From assembly GCA_028030915.1 (NCBI GenBank), contig GCA_028030915.1_4867.1: a stretch of DNA of 64,000 nucleotides. One strand, written 5' to 3'. Source of the DNA: a phage. The notes beneath the pieces were generated by a model. That model made no database searches, had not been told where the DNA came from, and saw nothing but the letters and a program-made list of their open reading frames with translations. The translations under genes and the position numbers were made by a program. Position 1 is the first letter of the stretch. Each line of letters begins with the position of its first letter. Of this stretch, positions 7,192 to 28,968 are shown one piece after another.

Positions 7192-10100
7192 ATGAAAACG
7201 TATCCTTACGATCCTCGGGGTGTAAATCCTGAGTGTCACTTCATCGAGGAACGTATCATCGACTCCGACAATCCTAACGATCGGGTGGTGATGCTAGATC
7301 ATCGCCCGTTTTTCGAAGGATTGGTGGTAAGGCTCGCCGGCTCGTCCATACCGCTTACCCGCGGGACGGACTATGAGCTGGAGTATGCTTTAACACCGTT
7401 GGACGACTCGGTGACGACCCCGGTGTTTTGCGGGGTGCATCTTATTAACCCTAAACTGCGTGGTGCGGTGGTCTTTGAAGGCCAGATGCTCGGGGGTACG
7501 TTTTACAGTGGTTTGATTGAGATGTTGGATGAGCTAATTAAGGCACTCAACAATCCAACGGCTGCAGATTGGCTGCTTTTAGGTAATCGACCTTCCCTGT
7601 ACCCAGCCACCCCTGCAGCGGTAGCTTGGTCAGACATGCTGAATAAAAAGTATGTTGCCTCTGCAGTGCATGATGTGGAGTTAGATGCCGGGGCGGCCAA
7701 CGAGCAGATTCGTGAAAAGCTTACTGAGCTGAAAGATGCGGTTTTGGGCTTAGGAACTGAAATCGCCACATTTAACTACCCCGGACACATTGCGTCGACT
7801 AACCCTCATGGGACTACCGCGGCGCAGGCCGGTGCGCATCCTGTCAACCTGAAAACGCCAGATACTTTCCTGGCGTATGGAAAGACGTTGCGTCAGTTAA
7901 CCAGCGAGGTCCGTGCACTGGGTCTGCAACAATCGGATATCGACAAGTACATTTCTAAATGGGTATCGAAAGAATCCAGAGGGGTGTTTAATGCGACGAT
8001 ATCCGGTACTCGTGCCCTGTTCCGTTCTCCTGCTGGTGAATCCGAAATTGTGTTCTCTGCTGAGGCATTCACTCTTAAATCTAATGGCTCTGTTGTGTTG
8101 GCGTGTGGGTATGCCGACACTACTGGAACCGTCCGGTTTATGGAGTGGAAAGCAGGCATCAATACATTACGTATTGAGTCGACTGGCAGTGCCTTGGGGA
8201 TGGATAAGCTGACGCTTAATGGTACGACGTTACTGACCACAACCGCTCTCATGGGCTATCAACAAGACCCTGGTACCGGCGGTGGTACCGTTGACCCGGA
8301 TGACAACAAACTGTACATTAGCGGGGTGAACGGCATTACTTTCACGGGTAAAGGGTCAAAAGCCGATCCTGTCACCGGGAAGGTCACAGCCAAACCCGCG
8401 ACGACCTCTGAACCAGGCGTTGTGACGCTGACTGATAAGCCGAGCGATGTAGTCAAAGGGCAAGCAGCCACCCCGTCGGCGCTTTTGCCGTATGAGGGCG
8501 ACCTGTCTTCGTACGTCAGGAAGACAACGCTGCTGAATAACCAGCCGATGAACACTGGTAGTCGAACGCTGACGAAAAAGGATTTGGGTTTAGACTTGGC
8601 TGATAACACAGCCGACGTCGATAAACCACTTTCTGACGCGTTGGCAGAAGCAGTTACCGGTCTTAGCGATAAAGGCCATCATCACAACTTCGCTGATTTA
8701 CAGATCCCAACGGCTTCTCAAACTGTGCCAGGCATCGCGCGATACTCTACCAACTTAAACGGCTTGGCGGATAATCGTGGCGTTACCCCGAACGTTCTGA
8801 ACGAATTGTCAAAACGTTTAGACGTGGTTGCAGCCGCGTTAGCAAACGCGAAAGAGGATTCCGTGGCCGACTTCGCCGCTGTGCGTGGTAAGACATGGAC
8901 TGTGGGGTCTACGCGTACTACCCTCGCTGTAACAGATTTGAACTATTTCTATCTGTTAAATGGTACACGTAAAGAGGGGACGGTATCCGGCTCGATAGAC
9001 CTGCAAACCACACCGATGTTCCAGTGGTTCTCTCCGGATAACCGTATGGAAAGAACGTGGCAAAACGCGGTAATTAATACCGGTGCCGGTATTGATTTTA
9101 GTGGGTTCGAGGTTGCTGTCCCGGAAACAAACTACGGTGCGCAGATTGGTTTAACGACAACCGGAATGGGTGATTTGTCAGTCGTTAACCTCTTGGCGAA
9201 AACGTGGGTTCGTTGCGACTCTGGTAAGCTGCGGATTTGGGTTCGTGGCGGTGGTGCTGTTTCTGTTTATCTGGACGGTGAAATTATCGGTGCGGGTATT
9301 ACAGAAGCGGGGTATCTGGAGGCGACTGTCAAAGAGGGGTGGAAGCAACACTGCTTAGCATTCCGTGCAGAATGTAACGATAGCGCTAAAGCAGCCGCAA
9401 TTCGTTTCACAATTTACGACGGTGACTTTGCGGTTGGGGCCTCGGATAAAAACACCAAAGTTGCCCGCCTGCAGGAGTTTGTTAAGACGCCGAACGGTTT
9501 AAGGCATTACCTCTATGTGAACATGATAACCGATGCGTTATATTCGCGCGCCGAACCTATTGTGGACACGGAAGGTATTAACTTGGAACGCGGCTATATC
9601 GGCCACATTGATGTCCCTGACGCGGGATTGGTTGCAGGCACGACTTACGAGTTTGAAACGACGTTTGATTTTGGCATGGCGTCCGAACTTAAACGGCACT
9701 TCGAAACACGTCTAGCACACGGGGTGAGTAACACCGACTGGTCGTTGACGGATAACCCGAAAATGCTGCCGTTGAATAAGGTTGATCCATTACCTAAACA
9801 ATGGCTGTATGCGTATCCAACTAACCCGTCTGTTTCTGGGGATAACCTCGTTCGTTTAGATCGTGGGTTATTTGATTATAAATTCGTAAGTGCCACCTCG
9901 CTCAGGATTCTTCTTGCGGCGGTTGTTTCCACTGAAAACGCGTCCCCGTATTGCTGGTTTACACCAAGCAACCCGAAAGAAAATGGAATGGCGACATTCG
10001 AGGGTTCGGTGGTAATCGACACTGATTATCCTGAAGTCCCAAAAACCTCGGACGTCGAAGTTTCATTAAACTTCATGGCCCCTTCTGCTGATGGGAAAGG

Positions 10101-22114: not shown

Positions 22115-22643
22115 ACTGCACTTGGTCGATCGCTTCCTGCGCAAAAGCAAGCTGTACAATGTGCACGCAATTGTGGCAGGGGAAGACTTCACTGATGAAA
22201 TCCAAAGCCTGTTGATTAAATACGGGCTGAATGTGATGATCCCGGTCTACTGCGTTGAGAAAGGACACGAGTCTGTCGCGGAAATCGAAAAGCGCAACCC
22301 TGGCTTTGAGAAGCGACTGCTTGCATACCCACGCCACAAAATCGAACTGCTACGACACTCTATTGATGAAGCCAGTCCTGAAAGTTTAGTGGCATTGGGC
22401 TTGTCTTTCCCGCGGATGCGTATTCGTAACTTACGCTCCAATAACCCGGTTGACGCTTATTACACAGAGCGTCAAATCTTCGAAGAACACCTGCTCCCGC
22501 AGTTGGAAGAAGAAGAGCAACACAACATTTCTCTGTTGTGGGCCGGTAACCTCGATCAGGACTTCCAGATGCTGGACTTCGGTTTGTTGTTAGAACTTGG
22601 CCTGATTGAGGAGGACGAATGTCTGTTACTGACAAAAGCTTAA
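22077..22643 (+). CDS. hypothetical protein (188 aa from refined start)
   Basis: ATG 22077 with acggag SD; overlaps the radical-SAM 3' end by 38 nt in another frame; no motif recognised. Confidence 0.5.
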   Translation: MKSILIHNFTKRKLHLVDRFLRKSKLYNVHAIVAGEDFTDEIQSLLIKYGLNVMIPVYCVEKGHESVAEIEKRNPGFEKRLLAYPRHKIELLRHSIDEASPESLVALGLSFPRMRIRNLRSNNPVDAYYTERQIFEEHLLPQLEEEEQHNISLLWAGNLDQDFQMLDFGLLLELGLIEEDECLLLTKA

Positions 22644-23290
22644 CGAACGAAGAGATCCGCGCCCGTTATTTCCAGCGTGATTTGCCGATTGATCGTCACG
22701 GTAATTTCATGGAACGAATCGGTGCGCAGGATCAGGGCCGTACCGGATTTTGTGCATTACTCCATTACCATCTCATCGAAGGGATGTCTGATAAAGAAGC
22801 CCTGGCACGCATGAAGCTGTATGAGATGTCGGAGATTGAAGCTAACTTCACATTGAAACGCACGAAAGAGTTTATTGCTAATGTGCTGGAGATTGACCTC
22901 GACGAAATTCGCGGGAATCTGAAATCTACCGCACGTTACATTTACGAAGACGTGCAGAAGATGCTGTTGGAACTCGACCACCGCTACGAAGATGAGCGCC
23001 ATGGTTATATCGAGTTTGAAGGTAGTCACTTTCAAGCCGATGAATCGTCGCGTACCATCCTCGGTCAATACATTCAGGCAGATACCGCACCAGAATACTG
23101 GCTCGATACGCTGAATACTAAGCACAGTCCGTTTACAGTAGCCCAATGTAAAGCGTTGCTGGCCGCTATTGTTGCACGTGACCAAGTGTTGCACTCAGCA
23201 ATGGCAGATAACAAACGCCAAATCCGTGAGTTAGCTGAAAAGCGCGATTACACTGGATTAAAAACATTGTCCGAGTCACTCGGCATGTAA
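22619..23290 (+). CDS. hypothetical protein (223 aa), last gene of the + operon
   Basis: ATG 22619 with gaggagg SD, overlapping the upstream gene end; followed by a terminator. Confidence 0.6.
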   Translation: MSVTDKSLTNEEIRARYFQRDLPIDRHGNFMERIGAQDQGRTGFCALLHYHLIEGMSDKEALARMKLYEMSEIEANFTLKRTKEFIANVLEIDLDEIRGNLKSTARYIYEDVQKMLLELDHRYEDERHGYIEFEGSHFQADESSRTILGQYIQADTAPEYWLDTLNTKHSPFTVAQCKALLAAIVARDQVLHSAMADNKRQIRELAEKRDYTGLKTLSESLGM

Positions 23291-24022: not shown

Positions 24023-24514
24023 ATGAAACGTCTATTTATCGTATTCGCGATTATAAACCTGTTGGCCGGTTGTGTTCAGTCGCCAAGCAACATAGGACAA
24101 TTTAGCGCCACACCAGTAAAGAATCACGACTTGGTGATTTATACATGCACAGGGACGCAGGAGAAGTTTGTAGACTACCGTCCGGTACTGGACAACCTAC
24201 AAATGATGCCGCGGTCAGTAACAGTAATGGATGTGGGTGCAAACTGGGTAGCAGCGTGGGACGGTGGCAAACTAGAGTCACCGATGATGTTTAAAGATAC
24301 AATTGGCAAAATCGACGGGAATGTTAATACCACCACAGGTGAGCGTTATTACCGTATTAATAAAACCGTAAACGATAGCCCCACTTACTCTTTTTCGGAT
24401 GTGAACCCGTATACCGGCGAAGGTAAAGGGATGACATTCTTTCGCTGCAGCAGCGGGTTTATCGGTGAAGTTCCTACTCCGATTACGATTGTTCCGTTAG
24501 AAGAAAATAAATAA
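24023..24514 (+). CDS. putative lipoprotein (163 aa)
   Basis: N-terminal signal peptide with lipobox MKRLFIVFAIINLLAGC; followed by a terminator. Confidence 0.65.
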   Translation: MKRLFIVFAIINLLAGCVQSPSNIGQFSATPVKNHDLVIYTCTGTQEKFVDYRPVLDNLQMMPRSVTVMDVGANWVAAWDGGKLESPMMFKDTIGKIDGNVNTTTGERYYRINKTVNDSPTYSFSDVNPYTGEGKGMTFFRCSSGFIGEVPTPITIVPLEENK

Positions 24515-24516
24515 TG

Positions 24517-24560
24517 CTTACCCACTCCCGTAAGGGGAGTGGGTAAGGGCTTTATTTACC
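24517..24560 (+). terminator. rho-independent terminator
   Basis: 13-bp stem cttacccactccc / ggggagtgggtaag followed by ggctttattta. Confidence 0.6.
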
Positions 24561-24639
24561 CTCTAAAACGCTCTGTAACGCTCTCTAAGCGCATTAAACG
24601 TATCAAATGATAAATGATATTACTTTTGATTAAAGTGGA

Positions 24640-25155
24640 TTAGATTTTAACTAGCTTGCTCCAATCGATGGGTTGTTGCTTAACCACTTTAACGGTACCA
24701 CGTGTCGGTGACCAGAAGGTGATATCAGGCTGGTTGCGTACGTCAACATGCAGCCAGGTAATATCGCACTCGATAAAGTGAATAAACGGAAACTCGTTAG
24801 GGTTCGCGGCAATATAGTCGTGTACTTTCTGCAACGGAGTATCAAGCATTGTTGCATCAAACGCATTACCGAATTTATGCATACTGCCTGATTCGGCGTA
24901 CAGTTTGTTTGCACGAGTTTGCCAATCGCCACCCTTTGGTTTCTCTTGATTAATAAAGAACTGCAGGGTACGCAGACTACGCTGTTGCTGGGAACTGGTT
25001 AAAATCACCATCCGCCCAAAACGATTACGAATCTGTTGGAGCGAGATTAGCAGTAACGGATTAAGGAAACGAATAGCACCTTCACCGTATTTCGCGATGT
25101 ACTCCTGCGGCATCAACTCTTTTAACGCGAAGTTGGCAGGATTCGGATGAAACAT
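24640..25155 (-). CDS. peptidase M15-family (L-alanyl-D-glutamate or D-Ala-D-Ala peptidase-like) cell-wall hydrolase
   Basis: zinc-ligand motifs SMHKFGNAFD (S-x-H-x-x-G-x-A-x-D) and WLHVD; aaggagag SD; 171 aa. Confidence 0.65.
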   Translation of the reverse strand: MFHPNPANFALKELMPQEYIAKYGEGAIRFLNPLLLISLQQIRNRFGRMVILTSSQQQRSLRTLQFFINQEKPKGGDWQTRANKLYAESGSMHKFGNAFDATMLDTPLQKVHDYIAANPNEFPFIHFIECDITWLHVDVRNQPDITFWSPTRGTVKVVKQQPIDWSKLVKI

Positions 25156-25164
25156 TTTCTCTCC

Positions 25165-25806
25165 TTAAGGGGTAGTCAGGAACGCACGTTTGATATTCAA
25201 ATACTGCACGTTTACCGGTTGCCCATTAGTAATGTCAACACGTTCGTGTTCAGGAATCGCTAACGTACGCGACGTTCTAAAGAACAGGTAGTTGCGATTA
25301 TAGGACAACGTCTTTTCTACCGGCCGGCTATAAACCACCTTAGAGTTATCGTCTACATAGGACGGCCAACCAAACTCGTGAACGGCATGGTAGAAGGACT
25401 TACGAATAAAGGTGTCAACGCCTAATGCCTCCATGATACGTAAGAACATCAGGTCAGCGAAAGTTTTGTCACATGCACGAGATAGATTACCTTCGACAGT
25501 GTCAGGGTAAAAGCCTACAGATGAACGTTTCTGGTAAAACAAATCATGCACACAAGCGGCAGCAGCCCAAGGCCCATCCGGATGCAGGATAGGACGTAAC
25601 GCTTCTGGAATGCTTGCCAGGTCCGTCACAAATCCTTTCGGTACCGTTACCCATAACGGGGTATCCGGATGCACACCTGCTAATGCTACCATCGCATCCA
25701 TTCCGGTCTGTTCACGATAGAGGCTGCGCAACGTAAACTCGAAATGGAAATCATCCGTGAGGATAAACCACGGCTTCTCTAACAACTTATACTTAAGTGC
25801 TTCCAT
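25165..25806 (-). CDS. DUF1353-family protein (213 aa)
   Basis: VTDLASIP and CVHDLFY motifs typical of DUF1353; lies between the muramidase and the M15 peptidase. Confidence 0.55.
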   Translation of the reverse strand: MEALKYKLLEKPWFILTDDFHFEFTLRSLYREQTGMDAMVALAGVHPDTPLWVTVPKGFVTDLASIPEALRPILHPDGPWAAAACVHDLFYQKRSSVGFYPDTVEGNLSRACDKTFADLMFLRIMEALGVDTFIRKSFYHAVHEFGWPSYVDDNSKVVYSRPVEKTLSYNRNYLFFRTSRTLAIPEHERVDITNGQPVNVQYLNIKRAFLTTP

Positions 25807-25813
25807 ACTGACC

Positions 25814-25906
25814 TCACGTCATATAACGCACGACCATCGTGAGGACCATTAATCCCAGTAAAATGGGCATTAAGCCTTTCGGCCAGTCGTCGTTGTCGTA
25901 TTGCAT
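25814..25906 (-). CDS. small hydrophobic peptide (30 aa), possible lysis-associated membrane peptide
   Basis: hand-found: ATG 25906 with ggaggg SD; MQYDNDDWPKGLMPILLGLMVLTMVVRYMT; stop 8 nt before the DUF1353 start; below the ORF-track cutoff. Confidence 0.3.
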   Translation of the reverse strand: MQYDNDDWPKGLMPILLGLMVLTMVVRYMT

Positions 25907-26094
25907 GGCTTTACCCTCCGACAGAAGATCGCACGTAATAGTTTGAAGAACCCAGAATCGTAATACGTTTCCGGAACGGTTTGTACTTCGGGGAACTTAG
26001 GCGGAGTTGGACGGTGGGTCATTACGTTTTCTCCTTGCGGCAAAAACAAGGGCGCGCCAGATAGCTTTCATTAAGGCAGCAAACCAATTCTGTT

Positions 26095-26712
26095 TCATTT
26101 GCACATCCCCAACTTAGCCACGTAGTCTGGCATTTCCTGATAGACGCGGCCATACCAGCCGTAAGTAAACTCTTCGTTATCCTCACGCCCTTCACTGATT
26201 TCCGTGTAGTACGCAACCTGATGACAGGTTAAAGCGAACATCAGTCGATTCAGGCCCTCTTCCCCACGGGCTTTGATGAAGCCTTCTAACGCTGTTAACG
26301 TACGTGGCCCGATACCACCATCGGCATCGATATCATCGTATAGTTTACCCTGACGGTTTAATACGTTCAGAATACGTTGCAGGGACTTGATACAGTTACC
26401 GCGTCCTGCGTTAATGCCGAAATCAAACATTCGGTCAGCTAGCAGGACATTCATTTTCATAATCTGGTCTAAACGCATCCGTTGCCACCAGAGTTTGTTG
26501 TAGATGTCTAACGCGGTTTCTAGGCTCAGGTCACGCATATCCCCTTTATAGCCATATTCACGCGCAGTGAGTTCAGTGACACCACGGTTCGTTGCTTTAC
26601 CCAAATCTTTCGGGTTATTAACGTAACCGGCTTCGATGTTTACTTTGGCACGAATAATGCCCTCTTTACTCCAACGATCGACCACGATAACCTCCTGCGT
26701 TGATAGGGTCAT
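26095..26712 (-). CDS. glycoside hydrolase family 108-like muramidase (lysozyme) with probable peptidoglycan-binding C-terminus
   Basis: IEAGYVNNPKDLGKATNRGVTELT resembles the GH108 EGGYVNDPxDPGGxTxxGIT signature; start refined to ATG 26712 because the listed start 26748 is encoded by the upstream terminator hairpin. Confidence 0.65.
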   Translation of the reverse strand: MTLSTQEVIVVDRWSKEGIIRAKVNIEAGYVNNPKDLGKATNRGVTELTAREYGYKGDMRDLSLETALDIYNKLWWQRMRLDQIMKMNVLLADRMFDFGINAGRGNCIKSLQRILNVLNRQGKLYDDIDADGGIGPRTLTALEGFIKARGEEGLNRLMFALTCHQVAYYTEISEGREDNEEFTYGWYGRVYQEMPDYVAKLGMCK

Positions 26713-26747
26713 AAAAAGAAAGCCTCTTCCCCGTGGGGAAGAGGGCA
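26713..26747 (-). terminator. rho-independent terminator (- strand) abutting the muramidase start
   Basis: - strand cctcttcccc-ac-ggggaagagg followed by ctttcttttt. Confidence 0.5.
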
Positions 26748-26790
26748 TGGGTTATTCTCAGGCTTTAACCCCGTCAAGTTCCTCGTTAAA

Positions 26791-28968
26791 TTATGATAAC
26801 GATTTCTTTGGCCGCTCCCACGGTTTAGGGGCGGATTTGGTATACGGATTACATTCCATCATCTTGCCGAGATACGCATCGTAATACACGAAGCGATCGA
26901 CATAGAACTTCTCCACCGGTGCACTACTGGTAGCCGATTTCACCCGGTTGCGTTCCACAGCGAGGTTAATCGTCCCGGTAGGCGCGGGTTTTAGCGTGAA
27001 CATCACCGCACGGTTGTAACGCCAAGTGTCGTGCACAATATCAAACTCCGATACACTGTGTGCCATGATACCAAACAATGTGGTGCTCGGTAAATTGGCT
27101 ACAGCATCACCGTATGGTGTTCCCACCAAACCGCCGGGTATGTTTTGCTTTTTGAACAGCGTACCTGAAATAATCGTACCTAAGAACTCCACAACTACAG
27201 GCTTGGTTGGGTCGGTGACTTTATCTATCCCATCCGCACTGGCCAGTCGATTGGCATCTAAAACTGCGAGGTAGTCGAGGAACTCTTGGTACTCGTCGGT
27301 AACATTCGGTTTCACCGTTCCGACGGATACCCAGTTGACGATACTTTTATTCCCACCGACAGCTTCGCCTGCCATCCCAGGGCGAGTCCATGACATCCCG
27401 TCTTCACGACCGTAGACATAGACTGGCGAGCCGGTAGCCGGGGTGTTCCATTGCTCGAACGCTGTATATCGTCCCGGCTGGCCCCAATCCCCACCCGGAC
27501 CGCCATAGTAGCGACTCTGGTAGCCGGTAAATTGCGCGACGACTAACTGGGTAGCACCGCCTTTGTCACGGGACCCAGCTAAGCCGTTACGGTTATTGGT
27601 GCCGCTGGGCACCGCCGCGCCTGGCCCGAGAGGCGCACCACCAGCTCCACCGATCTTGGTGGTGCTAAACGCATAGTAGTCGCCCCCACCCCCACCTCCG
27701 GCGATGGTGCCGTAGTTTTCGATGGTGACTTTGCCACGGAAGGCATCGGTAATGTGGATTGCGTCAGCTCCGTCTGCTGATGTGTTCGCAGGCAGAGAAT
27801 AGACCATACCCGAACCACCACGACCAAGAATGGTTCCCCGGTTAACGAAGTTCCAAACCACCTCGCCAATTTGCGGCAATTCGTCGATAACGAACGTCGG
27901 TTTCAGGTTGCTGTCGCGATAAACGAAAGCCCCTGCATCCACGGTCACGTTAACAAACAAACGCCCGCACGCCGCATGGTTGGTCAACGTCGTGGCCCAG
28001 TAGCTGTCCGAAACTTGCGACGTAGTTGTGTAGTTCAGGTTAAGGGTTTGCTCGTTATCTTGATAGCGTGCCACATTCAACGTGGCACTGCCCATGACTT
28101 TGTACGAACCCTCCACGGGTGCCAATTGCACTTGTCTTGGCCACTCGCCTGCCAAGTTCTCTACAGGAGCAATTTCGTTTACATCAAAAACACTCCGAAT
28201 GCCGAGTGTCTCGATGGCCAGAGCATCGTGCAGGCTACCGGTGAAATCATCCGGGACGTATGTGGTTTTGCCTGCATATGTCTCGAGTTTGTTACGTGAA
28301 AAGAACACATACTTCGTTCCAAACATCCCGCTCCCCGGTCTAGCGGTCAAAGCCACGACGCTGTTATACGCAGAGGTTTGGCCTATATCCTCCGGGGACA
28401 TCGGGGCGCTGACATCGACTTTATCAAGATCCACGATCCGTTTGGCTGCATTAGAGTAGAAGTTAATCCACTGCTGTTTATTCGCAGCCTTTAACGTGAG
28501 AATGATATTGGTAACAGTGTAGACGGTGTTGATATCCACGTCGCCGTTTATCACATCTAGCGTTTGGCTGCCGTACCAGACAAGACTTGTCTGTTTCGCC
28601 TGGAACGTGATGCGCGCAGCATTGTTTGTCCAAGTGATAGGCAGGTCTTCAAAGTCGTCGGTTAAAAAGGTAATCCCCAGTAAAGTGTCTAAATGCGGCA
28701 ACAGTTCGTGAATGGATGCACAAGTGGGAATGGCATCCAACTTAACCTTAGCGAAATAATCAGCAATATTTTGCTTCGTGACTTGGGCCGTAATTTGACC
28801 GTAATTTGAATACCCCGGACCCCCTGTCAGTGTGACGTCTAGGGTTTTTTCGTCACGATGCGCCACGGACACCAGGCGTACGTTAGCGGGGTCTACTGCT
28901 TTGGCGACCGCGTTTTTACGGTTGAGCGACCGAATCACGGTCGCCACTAAATCAGGAGTGTAGGACAT
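26791..28968 (-). CDS. Gly-rich fibre-like structural protein (725 aa) with C-terminal PYTKSAPKPW tag
   Basis: Gly-rich tracts (TIAGGGGGGDYY, GGAGGAPLGPGAA); C-terminal NPYTKSAPKPWERPKK resembles the C-terminus of the upstream 439-aa protein. Confidence 0.6.
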   Translation of the reverse strand: MSYTPDLVATVIRSLNRKNAVAKAVDPANVRLVSVAHRDEKTLDVTLTGGPGYSNYGQITAQVTKQNIADYFAKVKLDAIPTCASIHELLPHLDTLLGITFLTDDFEDLPITWTNNAARITFQAKQTSLVWYGSQTLDVINGDVDINTVYTVTNIILTLKAANKQQWINFYSNAAKRIVDLDKVDVSAPMSPEDIGQTSAYNSVVALTARPGSGMFGTKYVFFSRNKLETYAGKTTYVPDDFTGSLHDALAIETLGIRSVFDVNEIAPVENLAGEWPRQVQLAPVEGSYKVMGSATLNVARYQDNEQTLNLNYTTTSQVSDSYWATTLTNHAACGRLFVNVTVDAGAFVYRDSNLKPTFVIDELPQIGEVVWNFVNRGTILGRGGSGMVYSLPANTSADGADAIHITDAFRGKVTIENYGTIAGGGGGGDYYAFSTTKIGGAGGAPLGPGAAVPSGTNNRNGLAGSRDKGGATQLVVAQFTGYQSRYYGGPGGDWGQPGRYTAFEQWNTPATGSPVYVYGREDGMSWTRPGMAGEAVGGNKSIVNWVSVGTVKPNVTDEYQEFLDYLAVLDANRLASADGIDKVTDPTKPVVVEFLGTIISGTLFKKQNIPGGLVGTPYGDAVANLPSTTLFGIMAHSVSEFDIVHDTWRYNRAVMFTLKPAPTGTINLAVERNRVKSATSSAPVEKFYVDRFVYYDAYLGKMMECNPYTKSAPKPWERPKKSLS

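Follow-up and report, generated by a model that had tools for sequence, protein, structure and literature searches.

A 64,000-nucleotide stretch of phage DNA (contig GCA_028030915.1_4867.1 of NCBI GenBank assembly GCA_028030915.1, hereafter the window) carries on its minus strand, between positions 24517 and 26744, six genes which, in our judgement, fairly likely constitute a self-contained late lysis operon, in which micro-peptides and a predicted phospholipase A2 (PLA2) would take the place of spanins. The products are a muramidase, three peptides of 30–50 amino acids (aa), a protein of the DUF1353 family and a divergent M15-like peptidase. An original prediction, made from the sequence letters, had pointed to a lysis-type cassette with small membrane accessories at this site, a view borne out by the TtsA/Sen1395-type muramidase, the conservation of the small open reading frames (ORFs) and the hairpin-bounded unit in which they lie.

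The window belongs to a Seoulvirus, an SPN3US-like jumbo phage, with a nucleotide identity of 96–99%. Region 24400–27000 was aligned at 95–99% identity to the genomes of 34 Seoulviruses (SPN3US-like jumbo phages whose hosts are Salmonella, E. coli and Proteus), the matches covering 80% or more of the region and in nearly every case all of it, while more distant Erwinia jumbo phages showed ~70% identity to it. Genes are therefore named below after their SPN3US homologues, and the features of the unit, in the direction of transcription, are as follows.

26723..26744, minus strand: terminator-like hairpin ending the gp155 homologue (9-bp stem, 4-nt loop, tail CTTTCTTTTT)
26710..26713, minus strand: TATG motif (within TATGAC), possibly a late promoter of the phiKZ type from which transcription would begin at G26710
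26095..26685, minus strand: GH108 + PG_binding_3 muramidase, 196 aa, gp156 homologue (Pfam, PDB, phrog_315; start from a ten-lineage comparison)
25997..26098, minus strand: small ORF A, 33 aa, MKQNWFAALMKAIWRALVFAARRKRNDPPSNSA (conservation, phrog_25143, codon-position differences)
25870..26022, minus strand: small ORF B, 50 aa, conserved core DSGFFKLLRAIFCRRV (conservation, codon-position differences)
25814..25906, minus strand: small ORF C, 30 aa, MQYDNDDWPKGLMPILLGLMVLTMVVRYMT (conservation, hydropathy)
25165..25806, minus strand: DUF1353 protein, 213 aa, gp157 homologue (Pfam E = 1.2e-17)
24640..25155, minus strand: probable divergent M15/LAS-type metallopeptidase, 171 aa, gp158 homologue (motifs, relatives, phrog_894)
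24517..24547, either strand: terminator-like hairpin of 13 bp that reads on both strands (z-scores −4.7 and −4.5)

Both ends of the gp156–gp158 unit are thus bounded by terminator-like hairpins, the one at 24517..24547 closing both the six-gene operon and a convergent lipoprotein gene. Between them the genes are tightly packed, joined by ATGA overlaps or by Shine-Dalgarno (SD) sequences that lie within or overlap the end of the preceding gene. The minus-strand order proposed originally (GH108 muramidase, 50-aa ORF, 30-aa ORF, DUF1353, 171-aa ORF) was correct in its coordinates and ribosome-binding sites, with AAGGAG 8 nt ahead of the ATG of the 50-aa ORF (25870..26022) and GGAGGG 7 nt ahead of that of the 30-aa ORF (25814..25906). 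Both of these small ORFs are genuine conserved genes; a third, the 33-aa ORF at 26098..25997, had been overlooked. The genes themselves are already in GenBank, where the endolysin is annotated as such. In the literature searched, no description was found of the operon structure, the corrected start codon and putative promoter, the three conserved micro-genes or the reading of DUF1353 as a lysis-associated phospholipase at the usual place of the spanins, and all of these appear undescribed.

The first product of the unit is a close relative of TtsA/Sen1395-type prophage endolysins, with predicted muralytic activity. The Pfam search placed both domains originally assigned to it well over threshold: GH108 (PF05838) at E = 2e-18 (66.9 bits, cut-off 21.2) and PG_binding_3 (PF09374) at E = 6e-19 (68.4 bits, cut-off 24.6), and the protein falls into phrog_315 (endolysin). 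Its closest solved structures were PDB 6v3z (Sen1395; E = 9.5e-42) and 6v40 (E = 3e-39), at 44–45% identity, which we take to be the TtsA-family muramidase structures of a 2020 eLife study that the TtaP paper cites. Residue E18, the Glu of the E-[GA]-G-Y motif (here EAGYV), is invariant in the alignment with two solved TtsA-type structures and is presumably catalytic. Neither a signal peptide nor a signal-anchor-release (SAR) sequence nor any N-terminal hydrophobic segment was found in the muramidase, so that it needs a membrane lesion in order to reach the cell wall. A literature search for gp156 and gp157 returned nothing relevant.

Comparison of ten lineages relocated the start of this gene. 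AGGAGG (26696..26691, minus strand) lies 5 nt ahead of an in-frame GTG at 26685, and the resulting N-terminus V-V-D/E-R-W-S-K-E-G is preceded by a strong SD and begins with GTG or ATG at the same position in 10/10 lineages. The ATG previously taken as the start cannot be the muramidase start, because in Erwinia phage pEa_SNUABM_29 a stop codon closes its reading frame. The start is therefore GTG 26685, 25 nt downstream of the putative promoter described below, a placement that the alignment supports directly. The original prediction had rightly noted that a terminator-like hairpin (26744..26723; 9 bp, then a T-run) directly precedes ATG 26712; the lack of an SD that it described was an annotation artefact, and with a normal SD and GTG present, the reinitiation or unusual start that it invoked becomes unneeded. 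Database entries for SPN3US gp156 homologues begin at the upstream ATG and so give 205 aa, where the SD-led GTG gives 196 aa, for example at 7696–8313 of NC_027402 (L001).

The hairpin and T-run ahead of the muramidase gene were present in all lineages compared. Right after them, 24–36 nt before the muramidase start, TATGA(C/A) was kept in 10/10 lineages. In phiKZ the non-virion RNA polymerase recognises late promoters of the form 5'-TATG-3' and begins transcription at their G (PMC4666361), and by analogy the TATG at 26710..26713 may be a late promoter of this type. Across the window, TATGA was found in intergenic sequence 9 times against 2.6 expected. The longer form [TG]TATGA[CA] had intergenic copies at 724 (+), 3429 (+), 57275 (−), 62326 (−) and 26708–26714 (−), four of the five lying 19–45 nt ahead of SD-led starts and the copy at 724 overlapping a start codon. 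These copies are candidate phiKZ-type late promoters for mapping Seoulvirus transcription units. Sigma-70 promoter matches were fewer than in shuffled sequence (2 versus 5.3), which fits a phage using its own RNA polymerases.

Between the endolysin and DUF1353 lie the three micro-genes. The ATG of ORF A (26098) overlaps the muramidase stop codon as ATGA, and its product is predicted to be a cationic (+6) amphipathic helix with a hydrophobic moment of 0.5–0.6, typical of surface-active helices. ORF A matched phrog_25143 (3.4e-12), a PHROG without assigned function, and is kept in Seoulvirus, Erskinevirus and metagenomic jumbo phages. ORF B, whose SD lies within the last part of ORF A and which is read in a different frame, has a net charge of +6 and a cationic amphipathic helix as its core. 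Its version in relatives stops after ...RRVAP, at a TGA that forms an ATGA overlap with the start of ORF C; in the SPN3US-type version the ancestral TGA has become TGC, adding a lineage-specific 17-codon tail that runs into ORF C in another frame (25870–25921). ORF C, beginning near the end of ORF B, encodes an acidic N-terminus followed by a single transmembrane helix (Kyte-Doolittle 2.6 over a 15-residue window), in line with the hydrophobic character ascribed to the 30-aa peptide at the outset.

Conservation indicates that all three are coding genes. ORFs A and B were intact in 5/5 lineages spanning Seoulvirus and Erskinevirus (~70% nucleotide identity), and ORF C was present in the three Seoulvirus-type lineages compared (window/SPN3US, SPAsTU and pEa_SNUABM_29). 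Differences at first, second and third codon positions numbered 2, 1 and 9 to 4, 0 and 11 for ORF B, 7, 0 and 13 for ORF A, and 12, 4 and 18 for ORF C. The rate of non-synonymous change (dN) in the micro-ORFs was 0.09–0.38, with the synonymous rate (dS) saturated in cross-clade pairs. The third-position bias, together with dN, identifies ORFs A, B and C as protein-coding genes under purifying selection. A programmed frameshift producing an ORF A–endolysin or ORF B–ORF C fusion was considered and rejected, as no slippery site was present and relatives have the ATGA overlap; the overlap of ORFs B and C in relatives means that ordinary translational coupling explains the layout. GenBank treats the micro-ORFs inconsistently: none is annotated in SPN3US, C only in SPLA1a, B and C in SPAsTU, and A only in phiEaH2 and Asesino, ORF C being called hypothetical in SPLA1a and SPAsTU.

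The contents of the slot between endolysin and DUF1353 differed among lineages. It held A, B and C in Seoulvirus, A and B in Erskinevirus, an A-like ORF only in a 220–225-kb metagenomic group, and a C-like ORF only in Machinavirus and a metagenomic group including a 240-kb genome (L016). In a 237-kb metagenomic phage (L015) a single ORF combined a B-like N-terminus with a C-like DDDPP and transmembrane segment, and in pEa_SNUABM_6 the slot held nothing, only 9 nt separating endolysin and DUF1353. A small membrane-active peptide is thus nearly always present, its type being interchangeable. The fused ORF of the 237-kb phage (4855–5013, 52 aa, B-like part PPxFPEVQ...) represents a case of gene fission or fusion. 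As to function, ORF C has the property by which a holin would be recognised (at least one transmembrane helix, within a lysis cassette), and ORFs A and B are amphipathic, not membrane-spanning. A spanin would show an N-terminal transmembrane helix and a periplasmic coiled coil (inner-membrane type) and/or the lipobox Cys of an outer-membrane lipoprotein; ORFs A, B and C, which are 30–50 aa long and have no lipobox, do not fit this description, and the cassette contained no spanin candidate.

The DUF1353 protein (gp157 homologue) was named in the original order and left uninterpreted there; its presence was confirmed by Pfam (PF07087, 63.8 bits versus a cut-off of 22.5, E = 1.2e-17), and reading it as a probable PLA2 puts the working of the cassette in a different light. 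Function has been studied in a single DUF1353 member, the typhoid-toxin islet protein TtaP, which proved to be a phospholipase A2; it is a remote relative of the group XIV enzymes and has a His/Asp dyad with a further Asp next to it (PMC11525133). When 33 relatives of the phage protein, some as distant as 25% identity, were aligned, H87, D88 and D118 were invariant, and an AlphaFold model (mean predicted local distance difference test score, pLDDT, 92.4) places all three on helices. They fit the His, adjacent Asp and downstream Asp of TtaP (H70, D71 and D85) by pattern, not by residue-by-residue alignment. On this basis the protein is probably a TtaP-type PLA2, with predicted activity. TtaP is active on phosphatidylethanolamine and phosphatidylglycerol (PE/PG) lipids yet harmless until some trigger, a finding that fits the lysis mechanism proposed below. 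Two Caulobacterales-type chromosomal homologues (P0097 and P0098) have lipoprotein-like N-terminal signals (...ALAVSAC... and ...GLTAC...), which suggests the envelope as the site of action of cellular DUF1353 members.

The last gene of the unit, whose SD overlaps the DUF1353 stop codon (TAAGGAG), encodes the 171-aa gp158 homologue. The M15 assignment made for it originally was partly sustained: the protein itself scored below the Pfam gathering threshold (16.8 versus 23.2 bits) and fold matches were weak, but relatives match Pfam and the metal-binding motifs are invariant. Among 19 relatives, 14 matched Pfam M15_3 at E ≤ 1 (best E = 6.8e-8), and H93-x6-D100 together with H136-x-D138 (H136-V-D138), a LAS-type metal-binding signature, was invariant in the family alignment. 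The protein belongs to phrog_894 (endolysin; 2.8e-26). It had no significant match among PDB sequences. The AlphaFold 2 model (pLDDT 94.5) gave six top Foldseek matches in the PDB that were all LAS enzymes (LysECD7, VldE, 1lbu, VanXYc, LdcB and the RB49 peptidase), phage endolysins among them, at weak scores (E = 0.07–0.6, template modelling score 0.31–0.53). With hhalign, the family profile aligned H-x6-D and S-x-H-x2-G-x-A-x-D to two proteins annotated as M15 peptidases, one from a Helicobacter prophage and one from a Fusobacterium phage, at negligible probability. We conclude that the protein is probably a divergent M15/LAS peptidase, predicted to be active.

The association of DUF1353 with lysis genes extends beyond the window. 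In the jumbo-phage clade DUF1353 was a constant module member: Erskinevirus and Machinavirus have GH108 + DUF1353, Seoulvirus has GH108 + DUF1353 + M15, and two CR5/Phobos-type phages (L023 and L095) have DUF1353 + M15 with no adjacent GH108. In unrelated phages, DUF1353 adjoined four different endolysin types. A lysozyme followed by DUF1353 stands just upstream of the terminase gene in Pseudomonas phage Bjorn, and DUF1353 is followed by an overlapping endolysin in Pseudomonas phage Cygsa01. A Helicobacter pullorum prophage has DUF4376 ... DUF1353 and then an M15 peptidase; Nitratiruptor phage NrS-3 has a lysozyme two genes downstream of DUF1353, and Fusobacterium phage JD-Fnp3 an M15 endolysin two genes upstream of it. 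In ~10 distinct metagenomic viral lineages the order was endolysin, one unknown gene, DUF1353, holin. Judged by neighbouring genes, DUF1353 is thus often a lysis gene, and the host genera named in 162 phage records with a DUF1353 homologue all have an outer membrane.

Within the jumbo phages, the endolysin–peptide–DUF1353 block moves as a unit. With respect to the genes around it, the Machinavirus module is placed and oriented differently, standing (in L008, L009 and L011) after radical-SAM/DUF4376 genes on the same strand and not after head-paralogue genes. The lysozyme–DUF1353 pair of phage Bjorn (1985–4816 of L094) occupies an unusual place, between the small-terminase-like Gp4 and the large terminase, which suggests a mobile two-gene module.

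Several observations weigh against interpreting the unit as a lysis operon with an enzymatic outer-membrane step. When species-representative bacterial genomes were scanned for GH108, the best 80 loci kept and their 6-kb flanks searched with a DUF1353 hidden Markov model and motif, none of these 80 loci had DUF1353 within 6 kb, even at E = 50. A general GH108–DUF1353 phage or prophage module is rejected by this result, and the link is one of DUF1353 with endolysins of several families, not with GH108 alone. In phages CP81, TDDLMA, FLC6 and Lu11 no annotated lysis gene is adjacent to DUF1353, whose neighbours there include tail-fibre or nucleotide-metabolism genes. No holin-family match was obtained for ORFs A, B and C in Pfam and PHROGs, and the small ORFs are missing between endolysin and DUF1353 in pEa_SNUABM_6, implying that they are dispensable or encoded elsewhere. 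Deletion of TtaP in S. Typhi produced no detectable envelope or secretion phenotype, and gp158 was found at a low level in some SPN3US virion preparations, not in tailless heads.

The last of these observations touches on the alternative, also raised in the original prediction, of virion-associated wall-degrading enzymes: all three enzymes (muramidase, peptidase and phospholipase) would be carried by the virion and breach the envelope at the point of infection so that DNA and protein can be ejected, in the manner of tail lysins known from other phages. The cassette does lie among virion-protein genes, DUF1353 often follows tail-fibre or DUF4376 genes, and PHROGs files it under 'tail'. However, the SPN3US virion mass-spectrometry table lists the products of both neighbours, gp155 and gp160 (each also found in tailless heads), and does not list gp156 or gp157, while a later SPN3US study considered the gp158 signal in virions probably non-specific. 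The absence of gp156 and gp157, with only a trace of gp158, favours lysis over a virion-enzyme role. Hairpins moreover insulate the unit from structural genes on both sides, one of the prophage cassettes inspected uses this muramidase type as its soluble endolysin alongside Rz/Rz1-like spanin genes, and the Bjorn lysozyme–DUF1353 pair sits near the terminase, after a small-terminase-like gene and away from tail genes; we regard the virion role as quite unlikely. Still less probable, and in our view very unlikely, is a non-enzymatic role of DUF1353 as a chaperone in tail or tail-fibre assembly, which would reduce the cassette to an endolysin with unrelated neighbours. DUF1353 is frequently close to tail-fibre genes, and the databases (PHROGs phrog_1158 and, by copying, many GenBank records) name it 'tail assembly chaperone', but no experimental basis for this label was found in the searched papers, the founder of the family, TtaP, is a demonstrated PLA2, and invariance of the His-Asp...Asp residues across 33 diverse members would be unexpected for a chaperone; in unrelated phages, moreover, DUF1353 adjoins endolysins or holins.

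A different division of labour would leave the whole membrane step to the small peptides, acting as holin and disruptin, with the PLA2 serving elsewhere, in remodelling of host membranes or early vesicles, lipid scavenging or superinfection exclusion. ORFs A and B both pass a published ad-hoc disruptin screen (<80 aa, charge of at least +4) and come right after the endolysin, as does the disruptin phiKT gp28; ORF C supplies a transmembrane helix, and the unremarkable TtaP deletion and the phages with DUF1353 away from lysis genes would be accommodated. DUF1353, however, is constant across lineages in which the peptides vary (A + B, C only, A only, none), ORF C is translationally coupled to it, and its association with endolysins recurs across unrelated phages, so that we consider this arrangement unlikely, if somewhat less so than the two preceding ones. 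A lysis operon in which the DUF1353 protein takes part in the membrane step remains the interpretation we favour.

Under that interpretation, transcription would start at the TATG-type promoter just after the terminator of the head-protein gene and end at the hairpin at 24517–24547; the operon would probably be late, with all six products co-translated. Soluble muramidase, peptidase and PLA2 would build up in the cytoplasm until one or more of the small peptides permeabilised the inner membrane in a holin-like manner and/or damaged the outer membrane in a disruptin-like manner. In the cell wall, glycan strands would then be cleaved by the muramidase and peptide stems by the peptidase. By converting phospholipids of the envelope to lysolipids, the PLA2 would disrupt the outer membrane, a task otherwise performed by spanins, possibly with help from the cationic peptides. 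A broader proposal, which we advance as a possibility and with some doubt, is that, besides spanins and disruptins, phages have a third means of disrupting the outer membrane, an enzymatic one, in the DUF1353 proteins. These PLA2 enzymes would be released with the endolysin and dissolve envelope lipids in hosts that possess an outer membrane, and TtaP would be a domesticated copy acting as the membrane-perturbing partner of TtsA.

The cassette can be set beside several known systems. Among GH108-type endolysin loci inspected in bacteria, two (L098 and L099) had holin-like membrane ORFs directly upstream of the endolysin and one (L096) membrane ORFs downstream, while in a Salmonella prophage (L105) the endolysin was followed by Rz/Rz1-like spanin ORFs, the first of which overlaps the endolysin stop as ATGA. 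These prophage cassettes share with the phage unit the endolysin family (44–45% identity), tight packing and a next gene that begins at an ATGA overlap, ORF A occupying exactly the place of the spanin in the Salmonella prophage. They differ in that no holin stands upstream here, a terminator and putative promoter being found instead, and in that three 30–50-aa peptides, DUF1353 and the M15-like peptidase stand where the Rz/Rz1-like spanins would be. The typhoid-toxin islet of S. Typhi likewise unites the TtsA (GH108) and TtaP (DUF1353) families in one locus. For toxin release TtsA depends on the outer membrane being perturbed by something else, and the authors of the TtaP study propose that TtaP could do this. 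Unlike those of the phage unit, the two genes of the islet belong to different transcription units, with toxin genes between them, and serve secretion, not lysis, and TtaP has 125 aa compared to the 213 aa of the DUF1353 protein, which has N- and C-terminal extensions.

The disruptin phiKT gp28 resembles ORFs A and B in being small, strongly positive, a predicted amphipathic helix and placed right after the endolysin. It is reported to have no homologues except a near-identical protein; the likeness lies in size, charge, predicted helix and position. By the screen mentioned above, ORF A (33 aa, +6, moment 0.53) and ORF B (50 aa, +6) would be disruptin candidates, disruption of the outer membrane being predicted; in contrast to phiKT, two such peptides are present here, together with a transmembrane peptide and a putative lipase. 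LysB of mycobacteriophages, a mycolyl-arabinogalactan esterase, is a lipid-cleaving lysis-cassette enzyme that acts on the outer lipid layer after the endolysin. The concept is shared, whereas the fold is unrelated (a cutinase-like serine esterase versus a His/Asp PLA2), and substrate and host envelope differ. The Serratia ChiWXYZ secretion system presumably includes spanin-like genes and is not known to contain a phospholipase. It is described as a module of phage origin that opens the envelope (PMC4259817); a zinc (LAS-type) peptidoglycan endopeptidase belongs to it, in which it resembles the present cassette, and so does a recognisable holin, in which it differs.

The genes that flank the unit map onto SPN3US as follows.

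26791–28968, minus strand: gp155 homologue, 725 aa
24023–24514, plus strand: gp159 homologue, 163 aa
23372–23899: gp160 homologue

In the 725-aa protein a DUF7941 domain, of the head-paralogue family, occupies the N-terminus and is joined to a glycine-rich domain of the GP38 tail-fibre-adhesin type (E = 5.7e-18). Spectral counts of gp155 were alike in complete virions and tailless heads, and the protein therefore looks head-associated, with an adhesin-like domain. The 163-aa product, convergent with the operon and sharing its bidirectional terminator, has a lipoprotein signal and lipobox (MKRLFIVFAIINLLAGC) and falls into phrog_9559, of unassigned function; it is kept in related jumbo phages, in Machinavirus apart from the lysis module, and might be a superinfection-exclusion or envelope protein. 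A DUF4376 protein is encoded next to the cassette, at 22619–23290 (+). Relatives also have a radical-SAM gene pair there, and DUF4376 was likewise found ahead of DUF1353 in CR5/Phobos-type phages and the Helicobacter prophage.

In practical terms, the analysis calls for three annotations to be corrected, namely where the endolysin starts, the naming of DUF1353 as a 'tail assembly chaperone' and the treatment of the three micro-genes, and offers the two cationic peptides and the muramidase/peptidase pair as candidate antibacterial parts. How nucleus-forming jumbo phages bring about lysis has hardly been described (neither 'holin' nor 'spanin' occurs anywhere in a 2026 review of jumbo-phage biology), and the locus provides a concrete candidate lysis operon for the SPN3US genetic model. 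If the proposed role of DUF1353 is true, it would give a rationale for TtaP and add enzymatic destruction of the outer membrane to the two known ways; as ~15% of phages of Gram-negative bacteria lack spanins, it would also help to explain how some of these spanin-less phages manage.

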